From assembly GCF_048594845.1 (NCBI RefSeq), contig NZ_JBMDXE010000317.1:2726-66725 (forward strand): 64,000 nt of DNA, written 5' to 3'. This document shows positions 18,401 through 34,666 of this stretch, piece after piece (positions within the stretch are counted from its first letter, which is position 1; every line of letters begins with the position of its first letter). Made by a program: the position numbers and the translations under genes. Source of the stretch: Rhodopseudomonas sp. (GTDB lineage Bacteria; Pseudomonadota; Alphaproteobacteria; Rhizobiales; Xanthobacteraceae). A model generated the notes under the pieces. The model was given only the letters and a program-made list of their open reading frames with translations, had not been told where the DNA came from and searched no databases.

Positions 18401-18686
18401 GGACGTCTCCTGGCTGGATTCAGGGTCGAAGGGAGAGCTGTTTGCTACTCATCTGATATGCGGATCACGCGGTCGTCAACGCGGCCGGTAAATATGGAAC
18501 AATCGCCTCCGTAGATCCGTGTTCCGGAACGACCATTCTCCTGAAAACTTCCGATTTGGACGGAAATCCCGTAGCGGAATGGCTGCCAATTCGTCCCGCG
18601 CCCTTCACAACGGCGTCACGCTGGCTGTAGTATCCCTTGTGCATGCTGCTTCGCAGCGTCGATCGGACGGGAGTCAGGAGCGTTTC

Positions 18687-19244: not shown

Positions 19245-19299
19245 CAGGAGTCGCATTGCGCCGGCGCGGCGAGGGTCGTTGCACCCAAGCGGGCAGCGG

Positions 19300-20208
19300 T
19301 CACTTCAGATAGCTGGCCAGATTGAGGTTCAGGATCTTGCCGATCGCCGAATAGGATGCGGTGAGCTGCGACTGATAGGTCGAAAGCTGTGCCGTGACCG
19401 CGGCAACATCGACCGAGGTCAGGTCGCTCGCCAGCGTCTCGGTAAAGCTCTTGTAGTCGCTCTGGCGAGTGCTGGCGTCCTGGATCGCCGAAGCATTGTT
19501 GGACAGCTTCTCCTGTACGGCGGCGATCGAATCGAGCGCCGTTCCGGCGAGATCGAGCGCGCTGGAGATGTCGCTTGCCGAGAGTGAACTGCTGTTCGCT
19601 ACGGAGCGCAGGGCCCGCATCGCCTGCTCGAACGCCGAATTGTCGGCGGTGACCCCGTACGACACCGAGCGATCGGTGCTGACGCGGACCGCGGCAGCCT
19701 GATCGTCGCCCTTGTAGTAACCGGTGTCCGCGACGGTGGTCGAGCCGGAGCCCGACACGTAGCTCGACAGATCGACCGGCGCGGTGTCGGTCTTGCCGCC
19801 TGCGAACAGGTACTGGCCGTCATATTGCGTGTTGAGCAGCGAGGCCATCGACTTCAGCATGTCCTGCGCCGAGCTGATCACGGAGGTGGTCTCGGTGGCG
19901 CTGCCGGTCGAGGCGGCGCTGAGCTGCGAACGCAGCTGCGTCATCACGTCGGTCATAGACCCCACGGCCGAGTACATCGCCTGGACTTTGCCGCTCGCGA
20001 GCGTCGCGGCGTCGATGTAAGACTGCGCGCGGGTGAGACCGACCTGGAGATTGACGACGTGCTGCGCGTCGGCGCCGTAGCCGGCCAGCGTCTCGGACTT
20101 CACGCCGGAGGATTCCTGCAGCTGAAGGTCGGCGGTCTTGGCCTGAATTCGCAGTGCGTCCGAGATCATCTGGCCCGACAGCGCGAAGGTCGCGACCCGC
20201 ATGGTCAT
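19300..20208 (-). CDS. flgL: Flagellar hook-filament junction protein FlgL-like
   Basis: Flagellin-like N-terminus, LNTQYDGQYLFAGGKTDTAPVD, C-terminus LTASYSAIGKILNLNLASYLK; directly downstream of flgK. Confidence 0.85.
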   Translation of the reverse strand: MTMRVATFALSGQMISDALRIQAKTADLQLQESSGVKSETLAGYGADAQHVVNLQVGLTRAQSYIDAATLASGKVQAMYSAVGSMTDVMTQLRSQLSAASTGSATETTSVISSAQDMLKSMASLLNTQYDGQYLFAGGKTDTAPVDLSSYVSGSGSTTVADTGYYKGDDQAAAVRVSTDRSVSYGVTADNSAFEQAMRALRSVANSSSLSASDISSALDLAGTALDSIAAVQEKLSNNASAIQDASTRQSDYKSFTETLASDLTSVDVAAVTAQLSTYQSQLTASYSAIGKILNLNLASYLK

Positions 20209-20221
20209 GGCGCCGCTCCGC

Positions 20222-21988
20222 TCAGCCTGCCGACTGAACGGCGGTGAGCAGCGCCGAGAACATCGTGTTGATGATCTGGATCAGCTCCGAGGCCGCGGAG
20301 TACTTGTTCTGCAGCTCGCTCATGTTCGCCGTCTCTTCGTCGAGATTGACGCCGGATTGCGACGACAGCGAGCTGGCATAGGTCGACTGCGCCGCCTCCT
20401 TGGCGGTGTAGGTGCTGGACGCCTGCGAGGCCCGGCTGGCGACGTTCGATACGATCGCGGCGGCGTAATCGGCGAACGAACCCGTCGTGGCGGACAGGCC
20501 GCCGACCGCCGCAAAGCTCGTGGCGCCGGTCAGCTTCTGATACAGCGTATCGACCACGCTGGCGGCGTTGGACGTCACCACGACGGAGCCGGTCGTGAGC
20601 GTCGCTGACGAATCGAGCGTCGCCAGCGGCAGCGAAGTCGCCCCCGACAGAAGATCGCTGCGCACCGCGAAATCCGAGGCGCCGGTCGCGGTGACCAGAT
20701 CGTTGAGGCCGAAATAGCTGGAGAACCCTGCGCCGCTGCTGCCGGCCGCGCTGGTCATCTGGTTGATGGCGACGCCGTTGCCGCTGCCGGTCGCCTTGAT
20801 CACCAGATGGCCGTCGGCATTGATCGAGGCCGACAATCCGGAGATGCCGTTGACGGCGCTGACGAGGTCGCCGACCGTCGCGTAAGACGACAGGTCGAGA
20901 TCGGCCGACGACACCAGCTTGCCGCTGGAATCGGTGACCGCGAGCCGTACCGTGCCGGTCGCCGACAGCGCATCGCTGCTCGACACCGAGGCCGAGCCGG
21001 TGAGGCTGGCTGGCGGGGGAAGAGACGTCTGCGCGTTCGAGACGGCGTTGAGGGTGGTGGCGAGCTGTGTGGCCAGCGTATCGAGCTGCGACTGGACCGC
21101 CGGTAGCGTGCTGTCACGCAGCGTCACCAGCGCACTGACCTTGCCTGAGCTGATCTGCGACGTGATGTCGACGCCGTTGACCATGATGCCGCTGAAGCCG
21201 CCGCTGCCGTAGGAGGTCGAGGCGCTGACGCTCGACGCCGGCGTGTAGCTCAGCGTGTGTGCCGAACTGTCGACCAGCGCCTGGCCGGAGGTGGTGGAGA
21301 TCTGCAGGTCGCCGTTCGCCGCCGTGTAGTAGGAGATGTTCATCTGCGAGGAGACGTCCTGCAGCGCGGTGTTGCGCTCGTCCTCCAGATCGGCGGTGGA
21401 CTGACCGGCCGCCGCGGCCTGCCGGATCGCGGTGTTGAGATCCGCGATGCGCGACAGATCGTCGTTGATGCCGCTGACCGCGGAGGCGATGTCCTGGTCG
21501 GCGTTGCCGCGCAGCTTCTGGATGCCGCTCGACGTCTCGCGCAGCTGCGACGCCACCGCTTCCAGTGCGCTCACCGCGTTCGACTGCAGCGAACTGCTCG
21601 ACGGCGTCGCCGCCAGCGACGACAACGCCGACTCCAGCGAGGCGAGCGTATTGGCCAGCGAAGTGCCGGTCGACGTGCTGCCGGAGCTGCTGGTCGAGCC
21701 GTAGAGCTGCTGCAGCGAGCCGAGATAGCTGTTGAGCGTATCGGCCGATCCGAGGTCAGAGTTTGAGGCGATCAGCGACTTCAGCAGCAGGCGGTCGACC
21801 GTGCTGGTGATGCCGGTGACGGTGACGCCGGTGCCGACCCCGGCGGTGACGCTGCTGGCCTGGTTGGCGGTCTTCTTGGTGTAGCCGGTGGTGTCGGCAT
21901 TGGCGATGTTCGCCGATGCCACCGAGATCTGCACCTGCGTCGCCGACAAGCCGCTGAAGGCGATGCTTCGGGCGATGTTGAGCGACAT
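20222..21988 (-). CDS. flgK: Flagellar hook-associated protein FlgK
   Basis: SGLSATQVQISVASANIANADTTGYTKK, DLEDERNTAL, SGVNLDEETANMSELQNKYSAASELI. Start ATG 21988 (GGAGGAGG RBS). Confidence 0.9.
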   Translation of the reverse strand: MSLNIARSIAFSGLSATQVQISVASANIANADTTGYTKKTANQASSVTAGVGTGVTVTGITSTVDRLLLKSLIASNSDLGSADTLNSYLGSLQQLYGSTSSSGSTSTGTSLANTLASLESALSSLAATPSSSSLQSNAVSALEAVASQLRETSSGIQKLRGNADQDIASAVSGINDDLSRIADLNTAIRQAAAAGQSTADLEDERNTALQDVSSQMNISYYTAANGDLQISTTSGQALVDSSAHTLSYTPASSVSASTSYGSGGFSGIMVNGVDITSQISSGKVSALVTLRDSTLPAVQSQLDTLATQLATTLNAVSNAQTSLPPPASLTGSASVSSSDALSATGTVRLAVTDSSGKLVSSADLDLSSYATVGDLVSAVNGISGLSASINADGHLVIKATGSGNGVAINQMTSAAGSSGAGFSSYFGLNDLVTATGASDFAVRSDLLSGATSLPLATLDSSATLTTGSVVVTSNAASVVDTLYQKLTGATSFAAVGGLSATTGSFADYAAAIVSNVASRASQASSTYTAKEAAQSTYASSLSSQSGVNLDEETANMSELQNKYSAASELIQIINTMFSALLTAVQSAG

Positions 21989-22010
21989 GGCGGCCTCCTC
22001 CGCTGCGACG

Positions 22011-22490
22011 TCAGGCGCGAATGCTGGTCCCGACCGACGTGGCACGCACCGCGCGCGCGCCGCCGGCGCCGTAGGGCGAGGCGCTGGCGAGCTGTTCGCG
22101 GATCGCCTGCATCACCGCGTCGATGCGGCGGTGGCTCGCTTCCATCGCGGCGCGCAGCCGCACCAGGTTTTCGTCCATCGCGCCGCGCAGTTGCAGAACG
22201 CGATCGACCAGCCGGTCTCGGAGCTGCGGGTTCTGGACGTGGATGACGTTCGATCCGCCTGTGCAGTCCGCGACCCAGCGTTCGAACAGCTCGGCCAGCC
22301 GTGCCTTCTCGTCGACCTGCTTGAGCCGCGAGGCGGGCAGCCCTTTAGCGAGTTCGGTGTTCTCGTCGTCGATCACCAGAATCAGCTCGTCGATCAGTTG
22401 GATCATCGCCAGCGCGCGCTCGTCGCTGATGCCCGTCCGGGCGGGATTGCCATGGCCTGCCTGTTTCATCGTCGCCGTTCCCGTCTTCAT
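22011..22490 (-). CDS. Putative FlgN-like flagellar export chaperone
   Basis: Helical protein of about 150 aa (LILVIDDENTEL...ENLVRLRAAMEASHRRIDAVM...SPYGAGG) immediately upstream of flgK/flgL. Confidence 0.55.
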   Translation of the reverse strand: MKTGTATMKQAGHGNPARTGISDERALAMIQLIDELILVIDDENTELAKGLPASRLKQVDEKARLAELFERWVADCTGGSNVIHVQNPQLRDRLVDRVLQLRGAMDENLVRLRAAMEASHRRIDAVMQAIREQLASASPYGAGGARAVRATSVGTSIRA

Positions 22491-22496
22491 CAGAGT

Positions 22497-22760
22497 TCAG
22501 TGCCGGCCGGATCGCCCGGCCGCGTTGGCTCCACGCGCATAGGCGGTAATCGCTGTCGTCCGCTCGGTCGCCCGCGCCAGTTCGGCGGCGACGCGTTCGC
22601 GGCCGCGCGCCAGCTCGCGGCGGATCCGCTCGATCGCGTCGATCAAGGCGACGAGATCGGCCTCGGCGCCGCCGCCGGCCCGCGCGGCGCGCAACTTCAG
22701 CCGCGCGAGGCTGGGCAGCAGCGTATCGAGGTGCTCGTCGTGGTCCGGGCGGCGCGTCAT
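22497..22760 (-). CDS. Small helical protein, possibly a FliT-like chaperone
   Basis: 87 aa, coiled-coil-like, ends ...AITAYAR...; start overlaps the flgE stop. Confidence 0.45.
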   Translation of the reverse strand: MTRRPDHDEHLDTLLPSLARLKLRAARAGGGAEADLVALIDAIERIRRELARGRERVAAELARATERTTAITAYARGANAAGRSGRH

Positions 22761-24022
22761 CGCATCGCCGAGATCAAGGTATCGAACATCTTGTTCACCG
22801 TGGTGATCACCTGCGAGGCCGCCGAATAGGCCTGCTGCGCCGAGATCATGCTGCTGAACTGGCTCGACGTGTCGGTCGTGCTGGATTCCAGTTCGGAGCC
22901 GTAGATGGTGCCGGCGCCGTTCGCACCCGAGGTCTGCACCGACGCGCTGCCGGAGTCCGCCGTCGCCGAGTACATGCCGTAGCTGTTGCCGGAGAGGCCG
23001 CTCGGATCCTTGAAGGTCGCGACCGCGATCTTGTAGATCGCGATGGTCTGGCCGTTCGAGTAGGTGGCGTTGACGACGCCGTTGCTGCCGACCTTGATGC
23101 TGGAGAGCTTGCCGTAGGCGAGGCCGTCCGACGAAATGCTGGTGACGTTGATGGCCGGCGTCGTCAGGCCGGAGGCGTATTGGGTCAGCCCGTTGGTGCT
23201 GCCGACGGTGCCGAGGTCGAGCGAGACGGTCGAGTCCGACGCACCGTCGGTCCAGCCGCTTACCGCAATCGTCGCCGGGCTCGGGCTGGTCGAAGCGAGC
23301 GAGCCGTCGCTGTTGAAGGTGATCGCCACCGAGCCGGAGGTTGTGCCCGTGGTCTTGCTGGTGTCTGACGACAGCGTCGGGTTGCCGAAGCTCGCTGTCC
23401 AGGCGTTGGCGGCGGTCTTGGTCCAGGTCACCGCGACCGAATTCGCGGTGCCGAGTGAATCGTACACCGTCATCGAACTCGAATAGGTGGCGCCCGTTTC
23501 GGCGTCGGCCGGCAGATTCGCCGCGAACGTCGTCTTGGTGGTAGCGCTGCCGCTGGTCGAGGCGACCTGGGTGTTGATCGGGGTGAGGCTCGACGAGGAC
23601 GCATCGCCGACCACGTTGCCGTCGGCGTCGGTGCGCCAGCCTTCGAGATAGTAGCCGTTGTTGACCAGGTAGCCGGAATTGTCGATCGAGAACGCGCCGT
23701 TGCGCGTGTAGTAGGTGGTGCCGCCGGAGGCCGCATCCGAGGTGACGAAGAACCCGCTGCCCTGGATGGCGACGTCGGTGGCGTTGCTGGTCGCGGCCAG
23801 CAGGCCCTGCTGGCTGATATTGGCGCGGCCCGAGACGGTGACGCCGCCCGACGCGTAGGACGACGAACTACTCGACGCCGTCACCAGATTCTCGAACATC
23901 GCCGAGGTGGTCTTGTAGCCGGTGGTATCCGAATTGGCGATGTTGTCGGAGATCATCGACAAGGACTGGCTCTGCGCGTTGAGCGCCGAGATCGCCGAAG
24001 AGAGTGCGCCGCTGAGACTCAT
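22757..24022 (-). CDS. flgE: Flagellar hook protein FlgE
   Basis: ISDNIANSDTTGYK, TDVAIQGSGFFV, YTRNGAF, YDSLGT, C-terminus LESS..D...FSSMISAQQAYSAASQVITT. Confidence 0.93.
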   Translation of the reverse strand: MSLSGALSSAISALNAQSQSLSMISDNIANSDTTGYKTTSAMFENLVTASSSSSSYASGGVTVSGRANISQQGLLAATSNATDVAIQGSGFFVTSDAASGGTTYYTRNGAFSIDNSGYLVNNGYYLEGWRTDADGNVVGDASSSSLTPINTQVASTSGSATTKTTFAANLPADAETGATYSSSMTVYDSLGTANSVAVTWTKTAANAWTASFGNPTLSSDTSKTTGTTSGSVAITFNSDGSLASTSPSPATIAVSGWTDGASDSTVSLDLGTVGSTNGLTQYASGLTTPAINVTSISSDGLAYGKLSSIKVGSNGVVNATYSNGQTIAIYKIAVATFKDPSGLSGNSYGMYSATADSGSASVQTSGANGAGTIYGSELESSTTDTSSQFSSMISAQQAYSAASQVITTVNKMFDTLISAMR

Positions 24023-24041
24023 GACACTGCTCCGGCTGCGA

Positions 24042-24710
24042 TCACGACGTGACGCCGATGACGTTGCTGGCGCTGACCGCCACGCCGTTGACCAGCAGCG
24101 ACGGCGTGCTGGTCGAGGTGTCGATGCCGGTGACGGTGCCGCTGACGGTCGAGTACTGGTAGACGGAGTTTCCGGCGGCGTCGGTCGCTGTCACCGAGAT
24201 GCTGTACTGCCCGCCGTCGGAGAGTTGCGTGCCGCTTGAATTCTTGCCGTCCCAGGTGAAGCTGTTGGAGCCGGCGGTGCCGCTCCCGGTGCCGCTCCAC
24301 ACCGTGTTGCCGGACGAATCCTTGATGCTGATCGCCACGTCCGACGCGGCCGACGACAGGGTGTAGCCGAATGTCGCCGAACCGCCGGACAACGTGGCTG
24401 TGTCGGTCTTGGCTTCGACGGTGTGGCCGATGTAGTTGACCGAATTCAGCGTCACCAGGCTCGAGAACGAGCTCGCCAGCGAGCTCATGCTGGCATTGGT
24501 GTTCTGCTGTTCGGTGAAATTGGCGTAGGACGTCAGTTGATTGATGAAATCGGTTGTGCTGGTGGCGTTCAGCGGATCCTGATTCTGCAGTTCGCTGACC
24601 AGAAGGCTGAGAAAGTCGCTGGAGCTGAGAGAGGTGGAAGACGACGACGAACTCGTCGTGCTCGTCGAGGTGGTGGCGGCCGACGCGGTGGTCGCGGCAA
24701 CGCTGGTCAT
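24042..24710 (-). CDS. flgD: Flagellar hook capping protein FlgD
   Basis: DFLSLLVSELQNQDPLNATSTTDFINQLTSY, FTWDGKNSSG, GQYSISVTA. Start ATG 24710 (GGAGG RBS). Confidence 0.92.
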   Translation of the reverse strand: MTSVAATTASAATTSTSTTSSSSSSTSLSSSDFLSLLVSELQNQDPLNATSTTDFINQLTSYANFTEQQNTNASMSSLASSFSSLVTLNSVNYIGHTVEAKTDTATLSGGSATFGYTLSSAASDVAISIKDSSGNTVWSGTGSGTAGSNSFTWDGKNSSGTQLSDGGQYSISVTATDAAGNSVYQYSTVSGTVTGIDTSTSTPSLLVNGVAVSASNVIGVTS

Positions 24711-24802
24711 GTCGCAAGCCTCCAGGCTTCGCCGCACGGTGCGCAGCGAGGGCGTGGTGAAAACGGATGGTCTTGGGCGGAGTCCGTGGGGCCGCCTGCT
24801 GA

Positions 24803-24834
24803 TCAAACGGGGCGGCGGCCGAATCCAGGCGCGG
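24803..24834 (-). promoter_or_regulatory. Putative ECF promoter of the flgDE-KL operon
   Basis: Minus strand reads CCGCGCCTG-N15-CCGTTTGA; the motif is shared with four other cassette promoters. Confidence 0.7.
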
Positions 24835-24862
24835 ATTCTGAGGAGCTAATGAATTGATTAGT

Positions 24863-24876
24863 CGGCAGAATTTGCC
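24863..24876 (-). promoter_or_regulatory. ftr-like (FlbD-type) palindrome upstream of the flgD promoter
   Basis: GGCAAATTCTGCCG, 28 bp upstream of the putative -35. Confidence 0.45.
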
Positions 24877-24900
24877 TAGCGCGGGACGTGGTCGTGGCGC

Positions 24901-25410
24901 TTAGTTCAGCCGTGTGCGCTGGACATCCGACAGCGTCGTGTCGCAGGCGAGCGCGTGCGACATCCGCCAGAACATGTGGGCGAGGCGTGTGAAAGCGATC
25001 CGCTCGCGGGCCGAATCCTCGACGCTCGGCGGCAACGTGAACGTCTCGATACCGATGATGTTGTCGCAGGTGGGATGCTGGCCGATCGCCTGCGCGATCA
25101 CCGATACGCAGGGGGCGTCATCGGCTGCTTCGGCGTCGGTTTGAGGCGGCAGGCCAGGGTGCTGCAACGGCGCCGCATAGAACTGGTAGGCGCCGTGGCC
25201 GAGTTGCTTCACGACATCATCGGCGAGCGGCGGCGTGTCGCCGAAGCAGACCAGCCGCGAATCCTTCAGCACCTCCGGCTCGAGCAGATCGAGATCGGAA
25301 GGCGACACGTCGGTCCAGATCGACAGGCCCGGATTGTGCTCGCGGAGCAGCAGCGTCAGCGCGTGCTGATAGTCGGGGCGGCCGGCAAACAGGATGATGG
25401 TCTTGAGCAT
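24901..25410 (-). CDS. Formyltransferase-like protein with degenerate active site
   Basis: TIIL...HNPGL, LGHGAYQFY (NFHP expected), LAHMFWRMSHALA resemble rhizobial formyltransferase-family proteins. Confidence 0.55.
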   Translation of the reverse strand: MLKTIILFAGRPDYQHALTLLLREHNPGLSIWTDVSPSDLDLLEPEVLKDSRLVCFGDTPPLADDVVKQLGHGAYQFYAAPLQHPGLPPQTDAEAADDAPCVSVIAQAIGQHPTCDNIIGIETFTLPPSVEDSARERIAFTRLAHMFWRMSHALACDTTLSDVQRTRLN

Positions 25411-25422
25411 CGGGCGTATCCT

Positions 25423-26754
25423 TCAGATGCGCGGCACCGGGACGACGGCGCTGCCGCGTCCGCTCGCGAGCGAGGCAAAGAGATCGGGCGGGATCGGCTG
25501 GCCGGGCAGGATTTCGAGCACGCTGGCGCGGCCCGAGCGCGCTGCCCGTCGCGCGGCATCGACCTCGTCGCGCCAGGCACACAGCGTCAGTTCGAGCCGG
25601 CCGAAGCCGCCGCATTCGGCGGCGAATGCGCTGGTCGCGGCATCGATGGTGGCGGCGACAGCGCGGGCGTCCGCCGTGCCGACATCGTGCAGAATCACCG
25701 CAACGCTGTCGGTCGAAGGCGAGGGGGACTGCATCACCACGAGGGCGTCGCGAGGTCCGGTCCGGCCGGCCCGTCGCGGCGCGCGGGCGATTGCCGCGAA
25801 GCTCGGGTCGGGTCCGAGATCGGCCGTGGTGCTGCGCAGATCGTGGACGATCGTTGCCTTGCTCTCCGACAGATCCCCGACCAGCGCGTGGTATGAGCGT
25901 GGCAGCCAGACCGTGTCGAGCGACCGCTGCGAGGTCGCCAGGCACCAGGCCTGATCGAGCAGCGCGCCTTCCCACACAGTCGGGCACAGCTCGGCGAGCT
26001 GCTGCCAGACGGCGAGGAAGGCTTCGGCAGCGGCGGTCCGGCCGAGGTAGATCGTTCGGGCCGACATCTCCCAGCGATTCCATTTATGGACCGCGAGATC
26101 GCAGGCCAGCCGTGTCGGTATCAGCGGCGCCTCGTGCAGATCGGCCCCCGCCTCGACGAACAGCAGCGGTTCGGCGAAGCGGTCCCACATTCGCGCGATG
26201 AAGTCGGCCTTCTCGGCGCACTGCAGGCGATCGTCGAATGCGCTGTCGATCGGTTCGATATGCGCGGCGAGCTGGTGGCGCTCGACGGCTTGCCGCAGCC
26301 GGATCGCACCCTGATCGTCGCCCCGGCGCGGATAACAGCTCACCACCCGTAGCCGCTCGGCCGTCGCGGCGCGCGGCACGAGCGTCTCGATCGGGCCGAT
26401 GCCACCCCACCACAGCTCGTGCGGGCCGTCGGCGCCGTGCGTGCCCACCGTGCCGTATTCGGTCAGCTTCGATTTCAGAAAATCGAACACCGGATTCTCG
26501 CCGAACGGCACGACGACGACGCAACCGGGCCGCAGGCTGCGATAGAACAGCTCGGCGCCGGCACTGTTGAGAGGATCGGTGACGATGATCAGCCCATCCT
26601 CGGGCCGAAGCTTGTCGCCTCGCCGATATAGCCTGGCTGCGCCGAACTGCATGACCAGCCAGCCGAGCCGGCGGCGCTGCGCGGCGTTGAGCCGAAGCTC
26701 GGCGGAGCGCAGCAGGGAGGCGAGGTCTGCGGGGACATGATCGGAAGCGTGCAA
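25423..26754 (-). CDS. Hypothetical protein with a GT-A/nucleotide-diphospho-sugar transferase-like central domain
   Basis: VVSCY...A.RL...L..HIE...C..KADFI..M...LLFVEAG (DxD position degenerate)...CDLAVH...TIYL..T..A..FL..W. Start uncertain; TTG 26754 chosen, ORF is open to 26928. Confidence 0.45.
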   Translation of the reverse strand: MHASDHVPADLASLLRSAELRLNAAQRRRLGWLVMQFGAARLYRRGDKLRPEDGLIIVTDPLNSAGAELFYRSLRPGCVVVVPFGENPVFDFLKSKLTEYGTVGTHGADGPHELWWGGIGPIETLVPRAATAERLRVVSCYPRRGDDQGAIRLRQAVERHQLAAHIEPIDSAFDDRLQCAEKADFIARMWDRFAEPLLFVEAGADLHEAPLIPTRLACDLAVHKWNRWEMSARTIYLGRTAAAEAFLAVWQQLAELCPTVWEGALLDQAWCLATSQRSLDTVWLPRSYHALVGDLSESKATIVHDLRSTTADLGPDPSFAAIARAPRRAGRTGPRDALVVMQSPSPSTDSVAVILHDVGTADARAVAATIDAATSAFAAECGGFGRLELTLCAWRDEVDAARRAARSGRASVLEILPGQPIPPDLFASLASGRGSAVVPVPRI

Positions 26755-26807
26755 GATGGTGGACCGCAAAAGGGAAAGCTGCCCCTTGAACGGCCGAGCG
26801 CGCGGGA

Positions 26808-29255
26808 TCAGGCGCGCGCGTTTTCGTCGGCGCTGGCGGCGAGCGGCCGGCCTGCGCCGAGCGGCGTCACCGCCAGCGTGTAGATCGCGACCGGTGATGG
26901 CAGTGGGCCGAGTTGGACCAGCAGGCACGCCTCGTCCTGATCAGCCAGATAATGACGGCCGCTGCGGCGCAGTCCGGCATCGATCAGTTGCGCGGCCGGA
27001 ACGCTCACGACCTCCTGCCCATGCGCAGCCTCGGTGATTGTCTTGCCCTGCTGCAGCACGACGCCGTCGAGTAGCCCTTCGCGCGCGAGCTTGCCGAGCG
27101 GCAGCGCGATCATCGCGAGGCCCATTTGCTGCGAGACCGGGACGCGGAGGCGCAGATCGCCGAGGCCGGTGAGAAATACCGTGACGGTCTGCAGCGTGGC
27201 GCTGCCGTCGGCTCCGAACAGACCAACCTGCAGCGTGCCGCAAGGCGCCTCGCCGACTACATCGGACGACAGTCGATTGGCGCCGAACAGCGCATAGGAA
27301 TAGGCCAGCGACGGTGATAGCGCCGCGAAGCTGCCGGCGATCCACATCGGCGGCGGGGCGGTGGTGCAGGCGGCGGAGAGGCCGCGCGCCACGATCTGCT
27401 TACGGATGAAATCGCCGTCGATCATCGGCGCCAGCGTCGCGGTGCCGAGATTGACGTCGTGCTGGAAGTCGCCGAACAGCGCGAGCTCCTCGTCGTCGGG
27501 CAGCAGCAACAATCGCCCGATCGTGGCGGCGCTCCAGGCCGCCGACCGCGCAAGGTCGTCGTCAGGCGACAGCCTATAATCCGTGGCGACGGCGCCGGCC
27601 GCTGCCGTGAAGGCGAGCGCGCCGGCCTGGATCTCGGCGCATCGCGCGATCTGCGCGGCCGGCCGCGGATTGGCTTCGCGCACCACGCGGCCGTGCTGAT
27701 AGTCGCGGACCGATCCCTCCGGTGCGCAGCAGATCTGCTCCAGAATCAGCGCATTGCGCACCAGCATGCGATTGACGTGCGGCGTTACGGTGCGATCGCA
27801 GATGAAGCCCTCGGCGCTGTCGCCTTCCGGAATATCCTCGAGCGCGTCGTCGAGGGCGAACAGATACAGCCCGTGCAGGCGGACGGATCTGCCGTCCAGG
27901 CGTAGCGCGCGGTTCAGCGCTTTCTGCACATTGCCCGAATAGCCGACATCGACCAGCACGACGTCGGTCAGCGCGTCGAAATCAGCTATCGTCCGTTGCA
28001 GATAGCCGATCAGCCGGGCCCGGAGCCCGGCCGCGAGGTCGGCGACATCGCGCGGGCGCAGCAGGGTCGGCAGCGCGTCGGCGAGATCGGCGCCAGTGGC
28101 GATGCCGCCGGGATGGTCGGCGAAGAAGCGTGTGACTGCCGGCGGCAGCAGCTTCATCATGTCGCGGAACGTCGCGGCGTCGATCTTCGGAATCTTGCGA
28201 AACAATTCGCACAGCGGCTCGAGCGTATCGGCCGAGGCGATCAGGCTGACGCGGCGATTGACTTCGAGATAGCAGGCGGGTGTCGCACGCGTCTGTTGCC
28301 AGACCCGGTACGACAGGAAGCCGTCGCGGCCGAGGAAGGCGAGGCCGACGCGGCGGCCCTGCTGCTCGAGCTTTGCCAGACGATCCGCCACGAAAGCATC
28401 GAACGCGCGCATCACCGGTCCGACCACGGTGACGCCGAGATGATGCGCCGGCGATTTCTCCGCGCTGCGCGCCGCCACCATCCGCCGCAGCGTGCGTGCG
28501 CCATGATCGAGCTGCCGCGGGTGATCGTCGCACAGCAGTTCGAACAGCGAGGCCTCGCGCTGCAGCCGCGACGTCAGCCTCGCGCCGGCCTGCGGATAGT
28601 GCCGCGCCCGGATGCCGAAGCGCCGCGCGCCCTCGATGTCGGCCTGCGGATTGTCGCCGACATGCAAGGCCAAGGCGGTATCGATCCCTTGCTCCGCCAC
28701 ATAGGCGGCGAACAGCGACTCGCTCTTGCTGCTGCGGTGGTCGCAGGAGGCGTAGAGGAAATCCCAGGCGAGCTCGGGGCAGCACGCCCGCAACAGTTGC
28801 CCGAGCCGCGCCGAATCCCAATACGTATCAGAGATGAATCCGACGCGGTGGCCGGCGCGCTTGTTGTCGAGATATTGCGCGAGTATTTCCGGATTTGTCC
28901 GGCACAGGTCGAGCTCGGCGCTGAATTCCGCTTCCACCAGTCGATCAATCGCGCCCGCATCGAGCCCGAACAGTTTGAACGGGAAGCAGGAATAGATCTC
29001 GGCGATATGCACCTCGGCCGAGCCGCGTGTCTGCTTTGCTTTCGCGCGCGCGCGGGATTCAGCAAGGATGCGATGCTGACAGAAACCATCAGACATATTC
29101 CGATCATCATCGGAAATGCCCGAAAGCTGATAAGCCCTTTCAAATACGCCGGTTGGCGTCGTGCAGGCACGTACCAGAAATGTATCGAAAACATCGAACG
29201 AGCACGCGCGCTGCGTCTGCGTTCGACGTAGGCCGCCGATCGATAGCGCCGTCAT
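26808..29255 (-). CDS. HAD phosphatase + glycan phosphoribosyltransferase-like protein (probable PRPP-dependent ribofuranosyltransferase)
   Basis: HAD motifs SFDVFDTFLVR, ISDTY, SSKS..LF, HVGDN..AD; second domain G...VGP..., FLGRDG, LVDVGYSGNVQ, GLYL, LEQ....EGS...Y. Start placed at ATG 29255. Confidence 0.7.
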   Translation of the reverse strand: MTALSIGGLRRTQTQRACSFDVFDTFLVRACTTPTGVFERAYQLSGISDDDRNMSDGFCQHRILAESRARAKAKQTRGSAEVHIAEIYSCFPFKLFGLDAGAIDRLVEAEFSAELDLCRTNPEILAQYLDNKRAGHRVGFISDTYWDSARLGQLLRACCPELAWDFLYASCDHRSSKSESLFAAYVAEQGIDTALALHVGDNPQADIEGARRFGIRARHYPQAGARLTSRLQREASLFELLCDDHPRQLDHGARTLRRMVAARSAEKSPAHHLGVTVVGPVMRAFDAFVADRLAKLEQQGRRVGLAFLGRDGFLSYRVWQQTRATPACYLEVNRRVSLIASADTLEPLCELFRKIPKIDAATFRDMMKLLPPAVTRFFADHPGGIATGADLADALPTLLRPRDVADLAAGLRARLIGYLQRTIADFDALTDVVLVDVGYSGNVQKALNRALRLDGRSVRLHGLYLFALDDALEDIPEGDSAEGFICDRTVTPHVNRMLVRNALILEQICCAPEGSVRDYQHGRVVREANPRPAAQIARCAEIQAGALAFTAAAGAVATDYRLSPDDDLARSAAWSAATIGRLLLLPDDEELALFGDFQHDVNLGTATLAPMIDGDFIRKQIVARGLSAACTTAPPPMWIAGSFAALSPSLAYSYALFGANRLSSDVVGEAPCGTLQVGLFGADGSATLQTVTVFLTGLGDLRLRVPVSQQMGLAMIALPLGKLAREGLLDGVVLQQGKTITEAAHGQEVVSVPAAQLIDAGLRRSGRHYLADQDEACLLVQLGPLPSPVAIYTLAVTPLGAGRPLAASADENARA

Positions 29256-29283
29256 GCGTCGTAATCCGCTTATTTGTCGTCGG

Positions 29284-29314
29284 TTCAACGCGTGGTAATC
29301 GATAAGCAGGCGGC
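29284..29314 (-). promoter_or_regulatory. Putative ECF promoter of the HAD/gPRT operon
   Basis: Minus strand reads GCCGCCTG-N15-GCGTTGAA, about 30 bp upstream of ATG 29255. Confidence 0.65.
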
Positions 29315-29617
29315 GGGCGACGCTAAAAGTTAGTTCGTGATCGAAATGCTGCTGATCATCGACTGACACCGCGACAAATTGCGTTAGTGTCGAGTGCATG
29401 ATTCGGAACTCACCACTCGTCGCTAATTCGCGAGAACGGCTACGTCGCCAACGCGATGGTGATCGTTCGTCGCGTCTGTGCCGATGGTGTCAGCCGGCTC
29501 GCGCGCCGATCGCGCTGCGCGTCGCGAGGGGAGAGCCGCTCGGTCGGCCGGCGGGCCCCCTTGGTGTGTCGATGTGGTCTGCGCTGTGCATCGGAGCGCC
29601 GATCAGCCGGACAAGGA

Positions 29618-29652
29618 GGCAAATATTGCCGTCCGGTCGGCAAAACATTCCT
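29618..29652 (+). promoter_or_regulatory. Two ftr-like sites upstream of the sigma promoter
   Basis: GGCAAATATTGCCG (29618-29631) and GGCAAAACATTCCT (29639-29652); the second lies 28 bp before the putative -35. Confidence 0.45.
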
Positions 29653-29680
29653 ACTAACTATTTGAAAAATAATCAAAATA

Positions 29681-29712
29681 CCGCGCCTGCTTGGGGCGGG
29701 ACGGCCGTTCAA
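29681..29712 (+). promoter_or_regulatory. Putative autoregulatory ECF promoter of the sigma gene
   Basis: CCGCGCCTG-N15-CCGTTCAA. Confidence 0.7.
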
Positions 29713-29768
29713 CACGACGAGGCCAGACTGGTTTGGCGCCAGCGGCGTTGCGGGTTGGAGGATGTGGG

Positions 29769-30464
29769 ATGACTTACGCGGTCGAAATCTCGGCGCCTGC
29801 TGAGGCCAGCGTCGCGGCGCTCGCGCCTGATCACGACACCTCGCCCGAGATGGCGCCGACTCTCGTCCCCGACGTGCCGCCGGCGAGCTCCGAGTTCGTA
29901 TTCGACGAAGACGCGCCGCTGCTCGACCGGCTCGCGACCGGAGACGAAGCCGCTTTCCGCGCGCTGGTGGAGCGGCACATCGATCGGGGCTATGCGATCG
30001 CGCTGCGCATTCTCGGCAACGCGGCCGATGCCGAGGATGTGGTGCAGGACACCATGCTGAAGGTCTGGACGCATCGCGGCCGGTGGCAGCACGGCCGCGC
30101 CAAATTCTCGACCTGGCTGTACCGCGTCATCAGCAATCGCTGCATCGATCTGCGCCGCAAGCCGCGCACCGAGAATGTCGATGCCGTCCCCGAGGTCGCC
30201 GACGCCCAGCTCGATGCGAGCCGCGTGATCGAGCGCAACGAACTCAGCGGGATGCTGGAAACCGCGATGCAGCGGCTGCCGGAGCAGCAGCGCCTCGCAT
30301 TGATCCTGTCGTATCACGAGAACATGAGTAACGGCGAAATCGCCGAAGTCATGGAAAGCACCGTCTATGCGGTCGAATCGCTGTTGAAGCGCGGCCGCCA
30401 ACAGCTTCGCGCGCTGCTGCGCGGACACGAGCGCGACCTGCGCGGCGCATTTACCGACTGTTGA
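29769..30464 (+). CDS. ECF RNA polymerase sigma factor
   Basis: Region 2 (GDEAAFRALVERH...DAEDVVQDTMLKVW...KFSTWLYRVISNRCID) and region 4 (RLPEQQRLALILSYHENMSNGEIAEVMESTVYAVESLLKRGR); no region 3; about 40 aa Pro/Ala-rich N-terminal extension. Confidence 0.93.
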   Translation: MTYAVEISAPAEASVAALAPDHDTSPEMAPTLVPDVPPASSEFVFDEDAPLLDRLATGDEAAFRALVERHIDRGYAIALRILGNAADAEDVVQDTMLKVWTHRGRWQHGRAKFSTWLYRVISNRCIDLRRKPRTENVDAVPEVADAQLDASRVIERNELSGMLETAMQRLPEQQRLALILSYHENMSNGEIAEVMESTVYAVESLLKRGRQQLRALLRGHERDLRGAFTDC

Positions 30465-30490
30465 CCATAAACTCGCCGCTGCGCGTCTTT

Positions 30491-30522
30491 GCCGCCTGAT
30501 CGAGGCGGCTCCTTCCGTTCGA
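30491..30522 (+). promoter_or_regulatory. Putative ECF promoter of fliC-fliD-fliS
   Basis: GCCGCCTG-N16-CCGTTCGA. Confidence 0.7.
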
Positions 30523-30601
30523 ACATCAGACGGGGACGATCCGCGTCCGGTGTCATCGCCGCGACGCGGCTGGTCACGCCGATCAGCACAGGAGCCTTGC
30601 T

Positions 30602-31426
30602 ATGCCCGCGATTTCGACCAACACGGCGGCCAATTCGGCGGTCCGCTATCTCAACATCAACTCCGCGCAGGAGACCAGCTCGCTGTCGAAACTGGCGAGC
30701 GGCTCGCGCATCACCTCGGCGTCCGACGACGCGGCCGGTCTTGCGATCTCCACCCGGATCTCCTCCGACGTCACGACGCTGCAGCAGGCCGCCACCAATG
30801 CGTCGCAGGCGGTCGCCATCCTGCAGACCGCCGACGGCGGCGCGTCCAATATCAGCGACATCCTGGCCCGCATGAAATCGCTGGCGTCCGAATCCGCCTC
30901 GGGCACCACCACGGATTCGAGCCGCGCCTACATCAACTCTGAATTCTCACAGCTCTCCAGCCAGATCGACTCGATCGCCAGCGGCACGCGTTACTCGAGC
31001 CAGAGCCTGCTCGACGGCACCAGCGTGTTTGCTTCGGGTGTCTCGGTGCTGGTCGGCACGCAGGGCAGCGACACCATCACGATCACGCTGTCCGACCTGA
31101 AGTCGGCGACGCTCGGCGTCTCCAGCCTCGACGTCAGCACGCAGTCCGGTGCCACCACGGCGCTGAGCTCGCTCGACACCGCGATCAACACGGTCTCGGC
31201 GGCGCGTGCCAGCATCGGCGCGCAGGAGTCGCGGTTCAACTTCAGCGCCGACTCGATCTCGACCCAGACCCAGAATCTGCAGTCGGCGAACTCGGCCATC
31301 AAGGATGTCGATATCGCCTCCGAGCAGGCCAAACTGTCCTCCGCGGAGGTCAAGACCCAGGCAGCCGTCTCGGCCGAAGCCGCGGCGAACCAGATGCCGC
31401 AATATCTGCTGAAGCTGCTCGGCTGA
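30602..31426 (+). CDS. fliC: Flagellin, minimal (274 aa, D0/D1 only)
   Basis: SKLASGSRITSASDDAAGLAIS, LQTADGG, RMKSLA, C-terminus IKDVDIASE...QAA...AANQMPQYLLKLLG; AGGAG RBS. Confidence 0.93.
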   Translation: MPAISTNTAANSAVRYLNINSAQETSSLSKLASGSRITSASDDAAGLAISTRISSDVTTLQQAATNASQAVAILQTADGGASNISDILARMKSLASESASGTTTDSSRAYINSEFSQLSSQIDSIASGTRYSSQSLLDGTSVFASGVSVLVGTQGSDTITITLSDLKSATLGVSSLDVSTQSGATTALSSLDTAINTVSAARASIGAQESRFNFSADSISTQTQNLQSANSAIKDVDIASEQAKLSSAEVKTQAAVSAEAAANQMPQYLLKLLG

Positions 31427-31466
31427 TGATGCCCTCGCCGGGCCGGTCACGGCCGGCCCGGCATCA
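31427..31466 (+). other. GC-rich hairpin between fliC and fliD
   Basis: GCCGGGCCGG-tcacgg-CCGGCCCGGC 10 bp stem; no U tract. Confidence 0.6.
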
Positions 31467-31487
31467 CCGTGAGATCGATCCGACGCC

Positions 31488-33200
31488 ATGACTTCGGTCA
31501 GCAGCACGACATCCAGCACCGCCGCCACCACGAGCAGCGCGACCTCGTCGTCGTCCGGCACGTCGGTGACGACGTCCGGAACCTCGACCACCACCAGCGT
31601 CGATTGGGATTCGCTGATCGCCTCGGCGGTCAACGCCAAGCTCGCGGCGGCGACGTCGATCTCGACCAAGATCACCGCCAACGAAGCCAAGATCGCCGCC
31701 TATCAGACGCTGCAGACCAACCTCAGCACGCTGTCCTCCGGGCTGTCCTCGCTGGCGACCGCCGTGGTGAATTCGCTGGCCACCAACGTGTTCGCCACCC
31801 GCGCCGCGACGCTGAGTTCGACCGGCGACGTAAGCGCCTCGTCGGCGCTGTCGATGTCGGTGAAGAACGGCGCCGCGACCGGCGACCACACCCTGACGAT
31901 CAGCCAGATCGCGACTGCCCACAAGGTGATGAGCGCGACGCAATCGAGCAGCACCGATGCGCTCGGCAGCAGCGGCACCATCTCGCTCGGCCTCGCCGGC
32001 GGCAGCAGCGCGGACATTTCGATCACCAGCACGATGTCGCTGCAGGACATCGTCGATGCCGTGAATGCACAGAGTTCGACCACCAACGTCGAGGCTTCGA
32101 TCGTACAGGTGTCGAGTGGGTCGTATCGGATGGTGCTGACCGCGACGCAGGACGCCGCCGACATTCAGTATTCCAGCGTGTCCGGTGATGATGTTCTGAA
32201 CACGCTCGGCTTCACCGACAGTTCCGGCAGCTTTTCGAACGTGCTGCAGACCGCCCAGTCCGCGGCGTTCACGCTCGACGGCATCTCGATGACGCGCGAT
32301 ACCAACGACATCTCCGACGTGCTGACTGGCGTGACGTTCAATCTGCTGCAGGCGACGCCGACCGGTTCCAGCATCAACATCAGCATCGGCACCGATACCA
32401 GTCAGATCAGCTCGGCGCTGCAGACCTTCGTCACCAACTACAACGCCTATCGCGACGCGGTGATCGCCCAGCAGGCGACCAATTCGGACGGGACGGCGTC
32501 CGACAGCGCGGTGCTGTTCGGCGACAGCACGATGCGGGATATCACCAGCCGGCTGGAAGCCGCGTTGAACACCACCGTCGGCGGGCTATCGATGACCGCG
32601 ATCGGTCTGTCCTTCAACGAGAAGAACGAGCTCGAACTCGACACCAGCACGCTGTCCAGCATCCTGTCGACTAATCTCGCCGGTGTCACAAAGCTGTTGT
32701 CGGCGCAGACCACGACCTCGTCGAGCCAGCTTTCCGTCGTCAACACCGGCACGGCGCCGCAATCTTTCACGCTGGATCTCGCGGTGGATTCCAGCGGCAA
32801 TCTCGCCAGCGCGTCGGTCAACGGCGACTCGTCGCTGTTCACGGTGAGCGGCACCACCATCATCGGGGCGGCCGGCACCGCCTATGCGGGGATGGCCTTC
32901 ACCTACAGCGGCACGACAGCGCAGTCGATCACCGTGACTTCCACCTCGGGTATCGCGTCGCAGCTCTACCAGATCGCGAACAGCACCTCGTCAACCAGCG
33001 GTTCGCTGCAAACGATGATCAGCGGCCTGCAGAGCCGCGATTCCGATCTGCAGCAGAAGGTCGACGACATCACCGCGGCGGCGGCCACCTACAAGAGCCA
33101 GCTGCAGACGCAATATGCCAACTATCAGGCGGCGATCGCCAGCGCCGACAATACGCTGACCTATCTGAAAGCCCTCCTCAACGCCAGTTCGAGTAATTGA
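31488..33200 (+). CDS. fliD: Flagellar filament cap protein FliD
   Basis: VDWDSLIASAVNAKL, TISQIATAHKV, TLQTAQSAAFTLDGISMTRDTNDISDVLTGVTFNLLQ, FVTNYN, LFGDSTMR, LQTQYANYQAAIAS. Confidence 0.88.
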   Translation: MTSVSSTTSSTAATTSSATSSSSGTSVTTSGTSTTTSVDWDSLIASAVNAKLAAATSISTKITANEAKIAAYQTLQTNLSTLSSGLSSLATAVVNSLATNVFATRAATLSSTGDVSASSALSMSVKNGAATGDHTLTISQIATAHKVMSATQSSSTDALGSSGTISLGLAGGSSADISITSTMSLQDIVDAVNAQSSTTNVEASIVQVSSGSYRMVLTATQDAADIQYSSVSGDDVLNTLGFTDSSGSFSNVLQTAQSAAFTLDGISMTRDTNDISDVLTGVTFNLLQATPTGSSINISIGTDTSQISSALQTFVTNYNAYRDAVIAQQATNSDGTASDSAVLFGDSTMRDITSRLEAALNTTVGGLSMTAIGLSFNEKNELELDTSTLSSILSTNLAGVTKLLSAQTTTSSSQLSVVNTGTAPQSFTLDLAVDSSGNLASASVNGDSSLFTVSGTTIIGAAGTAYAGMAFTYSGTTAQSITVTSTSGIASQLYQIANSTSSTSGSLQTMISGLQSRDSDLQQKVDDITAAAATYKSQLQTQYANYQAAIASADNTLTYLKALLNASSSN

Positions 33201-33619
33201 TGACCCAGCATTCGATGGCCCAGCGGGCCAACCAGGCCTATCGCGGCGCCGCCGTGGCCGTGCCGCCGCTGAAGGCGGTGGTGATGCTTCACGCCGGCGC
33301 CATCACGCAGCTCCGCCGGGCGATCGAGGCGCAGGAGGCGCGCCGGTTCGAAGAGGCGCATGAATGCGTGGTGCGGGCGACCGCGATCCTGCGCGGCCTG
33401 AGCCATTATCTCGATTCCGGCCGGGGTGGCGCGCTCGCCGAGCGGCTGTTCCACACTTACAATGCGCTGGTGCTGGCCTCGCTGCGCGCGTCCGGCCGGC
33501 CTCACGCAGGCGCGAACCTGCAGCGCATCATCGACGGCATCGCCGAGCTGCGCGAAGCGTGGGAATACGTCGAGACCACGGCGCGGGCCGGCAGCTCCGA
33601 CCGTCCACCGCAGCGCTGA
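33197..33619 (+). CDS. fliS: Flagellin chaperone FliS
   Basis: QAYRG...PPLKAVVMLHAGAI..L..A, AILRGLSHYLD..RGG.LAERL..TY, LREAW. Confidence 0.85.
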   Translation: MMTQHSMAQRANQAYRGAAVAVPPLKAVVMLHAGAITQLRRAIEAQEARRFEEAHECVVRATAILRGLSHYLDSGRGGALAERLFHTYNALVLASLRASGRPHAGANLQRIIDGIAELREAWEYVETTARAGSSDRPPQR

Positions 33620-33715
33620 GTAATGGGCCGAGGCCGGCACGGGCCGGAAAGCGATTTCCGGCGGGCGCCAAATGCTTTATGACGGACCTGGTGGCGCGGT
33701 GCCGATCGAATCGGA

Positions 33716-33745
33716 GCCGCTGCACGTCAGGATCATTCCGTTCGA
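33716..33745 (+). promoter_or_regulatory. Putative ECF promoter of the anti-sigma-like ORF
   Basis: GCCGCTG-N15-CCGTTCGA (variant -35). Confidence 0.5.
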
Positions 33746-33799
33746 TGGGCCGAGGGGCCCGCCGTGCGACGACATGCCAGCCCTCTCATCGAGCGTGCG

Positions 33800-34093
33800 A
33801 TGGATATTGCGGAGTTCGAGGACCTGATCGACCGGCTGGGGGATGATCCATCCCGTTGGCCGGATGATCAGCGCCGCGCGGCCGAGCATCTGCTCGCCGC
33901 CTCCGTGGCGGCGCAGAGCCTGCTGGATAGCGCCAGGGCGGTGCGCGAAGCGCTGGCGGGGCCGCCGGTGCGGGCTCCCGCCGGCTTGGCCGACCGCATC
34001 GTCGCGGCCGCGAAACAGACTCCCGCCGATCCGGTGGATTCGACGGGGCGTCCGCTAGATCCGTCTCCTGGCGCAAAGGTTTTTGCGCGCTGA
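33800..34093 (+). CDS. Putative soluble anti-sigma-like protein
   Basis: MDIAEFEDLIDRLGDDPSRWP...A..LL..S..A..LL..AR...L...PAGLADRIVAAA resembles the N-terminal domain of small proteins typically encoded beside such ECF sigmas; no transmembrane helix. Confidence 0.55.
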   Translation: MDIAEFEDLIDRLGDDPSRWPDDQRRAAEHLLAASVAAQSLLDSARAVREALAGPPVRAPAGLADRIVAAAKQTPADPVDSTGRPLDPSPGAKVFAR

Positions 34094-34159
34094 GCGCAAA
34101 GGTCGCTGAAAATCAGATCGGATCCGAAGCAGGTGACCGACAGCCGACGCGGTGTACCC

Positions 34160-34666
34160 TCAGCGGCTGGCCGGCAGCTGCACGATCCAGGGCTCGTCGA
34201 ACGGGTACTCTTCCAGATTGATTCCCGGGCCGCCGCGGTCAATCACCACGAAGTCCTGCGCGGCGCCGAACGGCGTCAGCACGCCGTGCCAGATATTCGG
34301 CGCGTAGCAGACGCCTTGATGTGGGGCGGTGACAAAAGCCTGCGGCGCGCCGGGCCTGCGGGCCTCATCCGGGCACACCACCACCAGAAACGGCGCGGCA
34401 TTCAACGGCACGAATGCCTGGGATCCCAGCGGATGGCGCTCGACCAGGCCAAGTCGTAGCGGCAGCGGATAAGGCTGCGCCTGAACCAGTCCGACCACCA
34501 CGCGCGCGCCTTCGCCGGTGACCTCAATCGCCGCGAGGTCGTGAAAACGCTGGGCCATGCCGGCATTCATCGGGCGCGGCGCGACCTGCGTGGTGTCGAT
34601 CAGCGTGCCGAACGGCGCGAACGCCGCGGCGGTCAGCGGCTGCGCGGTGATGGTCCGCGGCGTCAT
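34160..34666 (-). CDS. allA: Ureidoglycolate lyase
   Basis: PLTAAAFAPFGTLI, VERHPLGSQAFVPL, QGVCY..NIWHGVL, FVVIDRGGPG.NLEE. Start ATG 34666 overlaps the upstream stop. Confidence 0.9.
   Translation of the reverse strand: MTPRTITAQPLTAAAFAPFGTLIDTTQVAPRPMNAGMAQRFHDLAAIEVTGEGARVVVGLVQAQPYPLPLRLGLVERHPLGSQAFVPLNAAPFLVVVCPDEARRPGAPQAFVTAPHQGVCYAPNIWHGVLTPFGAAQDFVVIDRGGPGINLEEYPFDEPWIVQLPASR

Follow-up and report, generated by a model that had tools for sequence, protein, structure and literature searches.

An RpoE6-type ECF sigma factor and five conserved promoters as the probable control module of an outer-flagellum cassette in Rhodopseudomonas and Bradyrhizobium

To our knowledge, a flagellum-specific sigma factor was long not known in alphaproteobacteria, and the first one came from a single Azospirillum strain with a single mapped promoter. 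Here, we describe a stretch of 64 kb from a Rhodopseudomonas-like alphaproteobacterium (the window), whose flagellar cassette at 19.3–34.1 kb appears to be built around an ortholog of this factor, RpoE6, a sigma factor of the extracytoplasmic function (ECF) type, and around five promoters of one type. The RpoE6 family was characterized in Azospirillum brasilense Sp7, and the cluster order there is flgD-E-hp-K-L-fliC2-fliD-fliS-rpoE6-asf6 (Gupta et al., J Bacteriol, December 2025; PMC12826043). RpoE6 was found to be sufficient for activity of the fliC2 promoter in E. coli (two-plasmid assay) and necessary for it in Azospirillum (rpoE6 mutant), and 5′RACE (rapid amplification of 5′ cDNA ends) mapped the start to 58 nt ahead of the ATG, downstream of CGCCAG-N16-CGTGAG, where deletion of either box abolished activity (PMC12826043). 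Asf6, a protein of 98 amino acids, binds and antagonizes RpoE6, and deletion of asf6 de-represses fliC2 (PMC12826043). For R. palustris and Bradyrhizobium the same authors noted the synteny of the module, reported more than 50% identity of the RpoE6 orthologs and predicted a similar role, while stating that the role of the flagellin and of the sigma factor in the Bradyrhizobium soybean symbionts is undescribed (PMC12826043). The synteny and the predicted role were thus already known; what the present analysis adds is a promoter consensus for the whole clade and a compact regulon of five promoters, to which hook genes and putative enzymes of glycan synthesis belong. It further adds that the sigma gene has a separate, putatively autoregulatory promoter, that the anti-sigma gene stands apart from the ECF promoters, and that two more cis-elements are conserved.

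The reading we favor, to which we assign a probability of about 85%, is that of a self-contained outer-flagellum cassette, read from five promoters of the same type by its own RpoE6-type ECF sigma factor, which in turn would be held by an Asf6-type anti-sigma protein. This reading of the cassette as an ECF regulon is supported by homology and conservation. The window carries an RpoE6 ortholog and an Asf6-type protein in a setting of flgD-E-K-L, a small flagellin, fliD and fliS, together with a variant of the Azospirillum flagellin promoter, and by every sequence criterion that could be applied the cassette belongs to the RpoE6/Asf6 module and not to FliA/FlgM or sigma-54.

The sigma gene (29769..30464, plus strand) encodes 231 amino acids, for which Pfam reports Sigma70_r2 and Sigma70_r4_2 only, with no region 3 or 1.1. 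Scores of 113.7 bits against TIGR02937 (sigma70-ECF; cut-off 42.9) and of 419 bits (vs. 303) against the NCBIfam equivalog PRK12538 classify the protein as a clear ECF (group 4) sigma factor. It shares 50% identity over 183 amino acids with RpoE6 of A. brasilense (E 2e-63), and an exact-protein look-up returned no match. The small open reading frame (ORF) at 33800..34093 (plus strand; 97 amino acids from the ATG at 33800) encodes a predicted soluble protein with 48% identity to Asf6 over 66 amino acids (E 2e-14) and without any Pfam or NCBIfam match, and the flagellin of the cassette is 56% identical to Azospirillum FliC2. The window sigma factor further possesses an N-terminal extension of about 45 amino acids (MTYAVEISAPAEAS...PPASSEFVFDED; 29769-29905), which Azospirillum RpoE6 does not have; as the alignment of most orthologs from Bradyrhizobium begins at residue 1, the extension is conserved in the clade.

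A first-pass annotation of this DNA had proposed that one bipartite motif precedes five transcription units, and a direct read of the sequence found its five strings at the coordinates and strands it gave. For flgD, the HAD-like gene, the sigma gene and fliC the proposal stands; the site in front of the anti-sigma-like ORF fell away, and the true fifth unit is orf501, which had not been listed. The aligned sites share CGCCTG, 16 or 17 bases and CGTT, in a fuller form CGCCTG(A)-N16/17-CGTT(C/T)(A/G)A. They were scored with a position weight matrix (PWM) trained on orthologous sites of other genomes, to which neither the window nor its two nearest relatives contributed. The highest score, 25.2, belongs to the flgD promoter (CCGCGCCTG-N15-CCGTTTGA; 24803..24834, minus), with a predicted start at about 24796, followed by that of fliC (GCCGCCTG-N16-CCGTTCGA; 30491..30522, plus; score 24.9, start about 30529). 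The sigma gene is preceded by CCGCGCCTG-N15-CCGTTCAA (29681..29712, plus; score 22.7, start about 29719), and this promoter type upstream of the sigma factor's own gene suggests autoregulation, as far as the sequence level goes. The orf501 site (CGCGCCTG-N15-CCGTTCAA; 26786..26817, minus; score 21.4, start about 26779) was found by pattern search; it lies just upstream of orf501 and extends into the final codons of the HAD-like gene. That HAD-like gene, which we call HAD863, has the weakest site (GCCGCCTG-N15-GCGTTGAA; 29284..29314, minus; score 13.5), for which the start is predicted at about 29277, with the ATG following 22 nt further on (29255). All five sites lie 22-90 nt before start codons and always have the orientation of the gene. 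Their spacer length is gene-specific and fixed, with 17 bases between CGCCTG and CGTT for fliC and 16 for the other four; the additional base is present in all 29 unique orthologous fliC sites of the PWM set and might tune promoter strength or timing.

The motif stands out from the background. The pattern GCCTG-N15/16-CCGTT occurs five times in the window against 0.33 expected, and none of 100 shuffles reached five; in the PWM ranking the five sites span 25.2 to 13.5, with the next match at 10.7, and in simulated 64-kb sequences the maximum has a mean of 13.9 and reaches 19.6 at the 95th percentile. Searching species-representative genomes with the sigma protein gave at least 145 relatives; the best 80 of them, from Rhodopseudomonas and mostly Bradyrhizobium, provide the syntenic loci compared here, which together comprise 1.31 Mb. 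Identity of the sigma factor across these 80 ranges from 72 to 94% (up to 94% in Rhodopseudomonas, 72-83% in Bradyrhizobium), and the neighboring genes are the same in every one of them. CGCCTG-N16/17-CGTT is found 376 times in this 1.31 Mb, and 364 of the matches are correctly oriented and lie no more than 130 nt upstream of one of the five genes (sigma 76, fliC 79, HAD-like gene 73, orf501 59, flgD 77), leaving 12 elsewhere, where about 9 are expected from base composition. Counted by locus, 76 of the 80 have the sigma promoter, 79 of 80 that of fliC and essentially all orthologous loci that of flgD, and the HAD-like gene has its site at an identical position in 71 of 71 orthologous loci despite its weak score. 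For orf501 the strict pattern undercounts (59 of 77), as an alignment not anchored on the motif gives a box identity of 0.98. The proposal that repeated strings of this kind are chance matches in G+C-rich intergenic DNA, of which the discarded site before the anti-sigma ORF is indeed an example, is refuted for the five conserved sites by the window shuffles, the PWM simulation and the 12 off-target against 364 on-target matches, and its probability is negligible.

Half of the 12 off-target matches sit at the position of the HAD promoter in photosynthetic Bradyrhizobium strains with a different first gene (loci L029, L033, L060, L062, L064 and L079, at about 7520 on the minus strand); in these loci, which have no HAD-like gene, the second motif, the one before orf501, is kept.

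Because the loci are akin to each other, the contrast between boxes and spacers within each upstream region is the more telling test. In MAFFT alignments that were not anchored on the motif, column identity amounts to 0.98-1.00 for the ten box positions, to 0.65-0.76 for the spacers and to 0.62-0.87 for the 30-nt flanks. Taken by promoter, box and spacer identities are 1.00 and 0.72 for flgD, 1.00 and 0.65 for the HAD-like gene, 0.99 and 0.71 for sigma, 1.00 and 0.71 for fliC, and 0.98 and 0.76 for orf501 (75 unique orthologous sequences). Conservation in orthologous loci, here about 80 syntenic ones, was thereby borne out. The module is fixed across Rhodopseudomonas and Bradyrhizobium, including agronomically important soybean symbionts, and it represents a predicted minimal regulon of hook, junction, filament, cap, chaperone and candidate flagellin-glycosylation genes with start sites that can be tested.

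The mapped promoter of Azospirillum allows a direct comparison. It reads CCGCGCCAG-N15-CCGTGAGA (5628-5659 of the Azospirillum locus L081) and differs from the window by one change per box; its mapped start is a G, 13 nt after the C of CGT. With the same offset, transcription from all five window promoters would begin roughly 13 nt beyond the C of CGTT, on G, G, A, G and G (at about 24796, 26779, 29277, 29719 and 30529), which is slightly further downstream than the 6-8 nt after CGTT expected earlier. Upstream of Azospirillum flgD we found GTCCGCCAG-N15-CCGTGGAT (L083, 829-865, minus strand, plasmid p3), a second candidate for an RpoE6-type promoter, of which the accessible part of the Azospirillum paper makes no mention that we could find (PMC12826043); such boxes before flgD would explain the response of FlgK and FlgL to RpoE6. 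Both systems accordingly have CGCC(A/T)G-N16-CGT(G/T) before the flagellin gene and flgD, and orthologous sigma factors with a small soluble anti-sigma protein. On a distant Hyphomicrobiales plasmid, whose sigma factor is 54% identical, CGCCTG-N16-CGTG lies between the sigma gene and an ORF of 308 amino acids, followed by one of 553 amino acids; by position and length these two look like flagellin and fliD.

The differences from Azospirillum concern the wiring. The window has its sigma gene in first place, with a putative autoregulatory promoter to itself, whereas rpoE6 stands at the end of the fliC2 operon and is transcribed as part of it; the anti-sigma gene of the window lies three genes downstream, behind a different conserved element without an ECF promoter. 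Two extra promoters would drive genes resembling glycan enzymes, which are absent from the Azospirillum cluster, and a GGCA-N5-TGCC repeat before two of the promoters as well as the N-terminal extension of the sigma factor further set the window apart from Azospirillum. None of the metabolic targets reported for RpoE6 in Azospirillum is visible in the 64-kb window.

With FliA (sigma-28) and FlgM the cassette shares a dedicated alternative sigma factor and a small soluble anti-sigma protein over flagellin, cap and junction genes. However, its sigma factor has no region 3 and is not of the FliA family (no FliA model was among its best 25 NCBIfam matches), the promoter is not TAAA-N15-GCCGATAA and the anti-sigma protein is not FlgM-like by sequence. 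Moreover, control by the window sigma factor would include flgD and flgE, two genes of the hook, so that any checkpoint would act before hook assembly and not after it. The sigma-54/FlbD-FliX system of Caulobacter and other alphaproteobacteria occurs in the same class and controls the same type of target (hook, junction and flagellin genes), but no sigma-54 promoter (TGGCAC-N5-TTGCA; GG-N10-GC) was detected at up to two mismatches in 19000-34500. Between 19 and 34.5 kb, neither a CtrA nor an EcfG consensus was present, and sigma-28-like strings at up to three mismatches were all located inside genes and never in intergenic regions; the intergenic regions also contained no sigma-70 consensus at standard stringency. 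Taken together, RpoE6 homology, box conservation and the lack of a rival consensus support what had been proposed at the outset, namely autoregulation of the sigma gene and joint control of hook, filament and glycosylation-type genes in place of sigma-28 or sigma-54. An ECF41-family sigma factor, which belongs to a different ECF group, is said to be linked to lateral flagella of A. brasilense Sp245, to go by the title of a 2020 study by Dubey and colleagues. No flagellar ECF group is mentioned in the ECF reclassification paper, and a start-site map of B. japonicum gave no motifs beyond RpoD- and RpoN-like ones (PMC4842269).

Among the alternatives, the one that survives best is that another ECF paralog reads the motif and that the adjacent sigma gene is only one of its targets, as Bradyrhizobium has 17 ECF sigma factors (PMC3420878). 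We regard this as quite improbable, since motif and sigma gene strictly go together in all loci examined, also in the distant ones of Azospirillum and Hyphomicrobiales, and since RpoE6 by itself is enough to switch on the homologous promoter in E. coli, while in Azospirillum the promoter is inactive once RpoE6 is lost (PMC12826043). Still less probable is that the boxes form the site of a transcription factor instead of -35 and -10 elements. A bipartite element of fixed spacing could be a dimer site, and the factor-like GGCA-N5-TGCC repeat is nearby; the two boxes, however, are unlike each other and neither palindromic nor repeated, their orientation always follows the gene, they lie 22-90 nt before start codons, and in Azospirillum the homologous boxes occupy -35 and -10 relative to a start that has been mapped (PMC12826043).

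The anti-sigma gene has to be placed outside the set of ECF motifs, judging from its upstream region. The site originally proposed there, GCCGCTG-N15-CCGTTCGA (33716-33745, plus), was rejected, as it has a degenerate -35 box and a PWM score of -2.9; neither the closest relative (L001) nor Bradyrhizobium has it, and L002 has it only in part. What is conserved instead is a palindrome, GGAAAGCGATTTCC (33646-33659), followed after 11 nt by an A/T box, AATGCTTTATGAC (33671-33683), the whole spanning 33646..33683 on the plus strand. The palindrome has the consensus GGAAA(g/t)CGATTTCC and is unique in the window (0.02 expected); the A/T box occurs in 67 of the 80 loci, its median distance from the ATG being 30 nt, and has no further match within the 1.3 Mb of loci, and the gap of 11 nt between the two is fixed across loci. 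The element may combine an operator and a promoter of the sigma-70-like kind (TTTCCG-N17-TATGAC). The anti-sigma gene thus stands three genes from the sigma gene behind its own conserved non-ECF element, instead of being its adjacent and co-transcribed partner. Adjacency to or co-transcription with the sigma gene is a usual feature of anti-sigma genes in the ECF family, not an obligatory one.

Further conserved elements were found beside the ECF promoters. An inverted repeat, GGCA-N5-TGCC, precedes the flgD -35 box by 45-46 nt (24864..24876) and the sigma -35 box by 66-67 nt (29618-29630, plus); within the cassette its strict form occurs at these two places only. The flgD copy keeps its distance in 77 of 78 loci, with CGGCA.AtT.TGCCG conserved to at least 95% in an unanchored alignment, and the sigma copy does so in 79 of 81. 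In its loose form, CGGCA-N5-TGCCG, the pattern is not enriched in the window (12 vs. 9.2), so it is only conservation that argues for this repeat. Given the fixed distances at the sigma and flgD promoters, it is probably the binding site of a second regulator that gates these two entry points of the program. The repeat may resemble the ‘ftr’ sites of FlbD, which we take as a lead only. The sigma repeat is followed by an invariant A/T-rich block, GGCAAAA..CC..TAA....TGAAAAATAA (within 29618..29680, plus), which directly adjoins the sigma -35 box. The divergent region between HAD863 and the sigma gene, 513 nt long and conserved in length, holds more than the two ECF promoters: at 29363-29390 there is a sigma-70-like CTGACA-N16-TAGTGT, and behind it, at 29399-29408, the invariant TGATTCGGAA (both plus). 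Counterparts of the form CTGACA-N16/17-TAnnnT exist in 79 of the 81 sequences and precede the sigma ECF -35 box by 311-325 nt; the element could serve the sigma gene as a distal, basal promoter, which would give a leader of about 370 nt.

Several points weigh against the view that the RpoE6-type sigma factor reads the whole cassette. The 80 loci stem from related species, and their counts are not independent events. The HAD promoter, with its score of 13.5, lies within the noise of the PWM simulation when the sequence alone is considered. The window promoters have CGTT in their -10 box, whereas the mapped Azospirillum promoter has CGTG. In the PWM sites the -10 CGT(T) is invariant and the -35 box is CGCCTG, without the AAC that is typical of many ECF promoters; ECF groups differ in this box, and the missing AAC stays compatible with membership in the family. 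The GGCA-N5-TGCC repeat and the sigma-70-like promoter would mean that the ECF sigma factor is not the sole input. Finally, genuine RNA-Seq runs gave short contigs at a depth of 3-20, scattered over the cassette and with no usable 5′ ends. Other runs, labeled ‘RNA?’ and covering the ortholog from B. diazoefficiens, were rejected as transcript evidence due to genome-like contigs and flat depth, and all sequencing runs containing the window itself are metagenomic DNA.

By extension from Azospirillum fliC2, the RpoE6-type sigma factor would recognize all five promoters and, via the one before its own gene, act in positive autoregulation, while the Asf6-type protein would hold it inactive until a signal releases it. 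Entry into the program would be gated by a second regulator at GGCA-N5-TGCC, with the anti-sigma gene under its own palindrome and A/T box. The products would comprise the hook cap, hook and junction proteins, the small flagellin, the filament cap, chaperones and two or three enzymes that build glycans. A bolder scenario, which we consider rather unlikely as a whole, would see the cassette as an ‘outer flagellum replacement kit’, extending from hook to cap with the glycan enzymes and mounted on a basal body encoded elsewhere. The ECF/anti-sigma pair would then be a convergent analogue of sigma-28/FlgM that acts before the hook, the repeat-bound regulator would couple the cassette to the main hierarchy, and the anti-sigma protein, made from its own promoter, would be exported via flagellar secretion.

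By Pfam annotation the gene set is confined to external parts of the flagellum, and no basal-body, motor or export genes are annotated within the cassette. The hook/junction operon (19300..24710, minus) consists of flgD (24042-24710), flgE (22757-24022), orf87 (22497-22760), orf159 (FlgN/HrpB7-like; 22011-22490), flgK (20222-22045) and flgL (19300-20208), and the PWM scan found no ECF-type motif between genes inside it. At higher coordinates on the same strand lie orf169 (24901-25410), orf501 (25423 to 26754 or 26769, the TTG start being uncertain) and HAD863 (26808..29255). The filament operon (30602..33619, plus; also from Pfam) contains fliC (30602-31426), which encodes a small flagellin of the D0/D1 type with 274 amino acids, fliD (31488-33200) and fliS (33200-33619). 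The flanks of the cassette, with glgC/glgA, an HNH endonuclease, a ureidoglycolate lyase and a dicarboxylate symporter, are unrelated to flagella.

The label of glycosylation, which the first-pass annotation had attached to part of the cassette, is the weakest part of that annotation. Pfam gives almost no support: orf501 and orf169 have no Pfam or PDB sequence match, and similarity at the level of the fold was obtained for orf501 and HAD863, with orf169 remaining without a match. All homologs of orf501 are named ‘hypothetical’, and the database names for the accessory genes are ‘hypothetical’ or ‘HAD hydrolase’. The AlphaFold2 (AF2) model of orf501 (predicted local distance difference test score, pLDDT, 74) has GT-A glycosyltransferases as its best Foldseek matches (E 1.4e-4; template modeling (TM) scores 0.24/0.48), with PBCV-1 A64R, LH3/COLGALT1, mimivirus R699 and B4GalT1 among the matches at E of about 1e-4 and probabilities of 0.9-1.0; from this model, orf501 looks like one or two GT-A glycosyltransferase domains. 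HAD863, a protein of 815 amino acids with an N-terminal HAD phosphatase-like domain and a large C-terminal part, has a weak Pfam match to Hydrolase_like, and its HAD domain matches the phosphatase module of Bcs3 in the PDB by sequence (E 0.0027). The Foldseek match of its AF2 model (pLDDT 72) to Bcs3 (8a0m/8a0c; E 6e-14, about 800 columns, TM 0.42) agrees with this weak sequence match. Bcs3 is the capsule-polymerizing multienzyme of Haemophilus influenzae type b, and a likeness to it over nearly the whole length of HAD863 is an unusual kinship for a gene of a flagellar cluster. Azospirillum FliC2 is reported as probably glycosylated (PMC12826043), and the accessory enzymes of the cassette may glycosylate its flagellin.

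In the gap between fliC and fliD (31427-31487), a G+C-rich hairpin (GCCGGGCCGG tcac GGCCGGCCCGGC) without a T-run after it was spotted by eye, which could be a processing or attenuation site setting the ratio of flagellin to cap. An Rfam scan of 18-36 kb gave no credible match, and a terminator scan at standard settings gave nothing above chance. The arrangement of the hook/junction operon differs among the loci. In Bradyrhizobium it follows downstream of the anti-sigma gene on the same (plus) strand (window vs. L004-L080), while in the window and in R. telluris the block from flgD to flgL, with its promoter and inverted repeat, is inverted and lies beyond the glycan genes. The flgD promoter moves together with the relocated operon, and the outer edge of the relocated block is marked by the HNH endonuclease gene (18519-19244).

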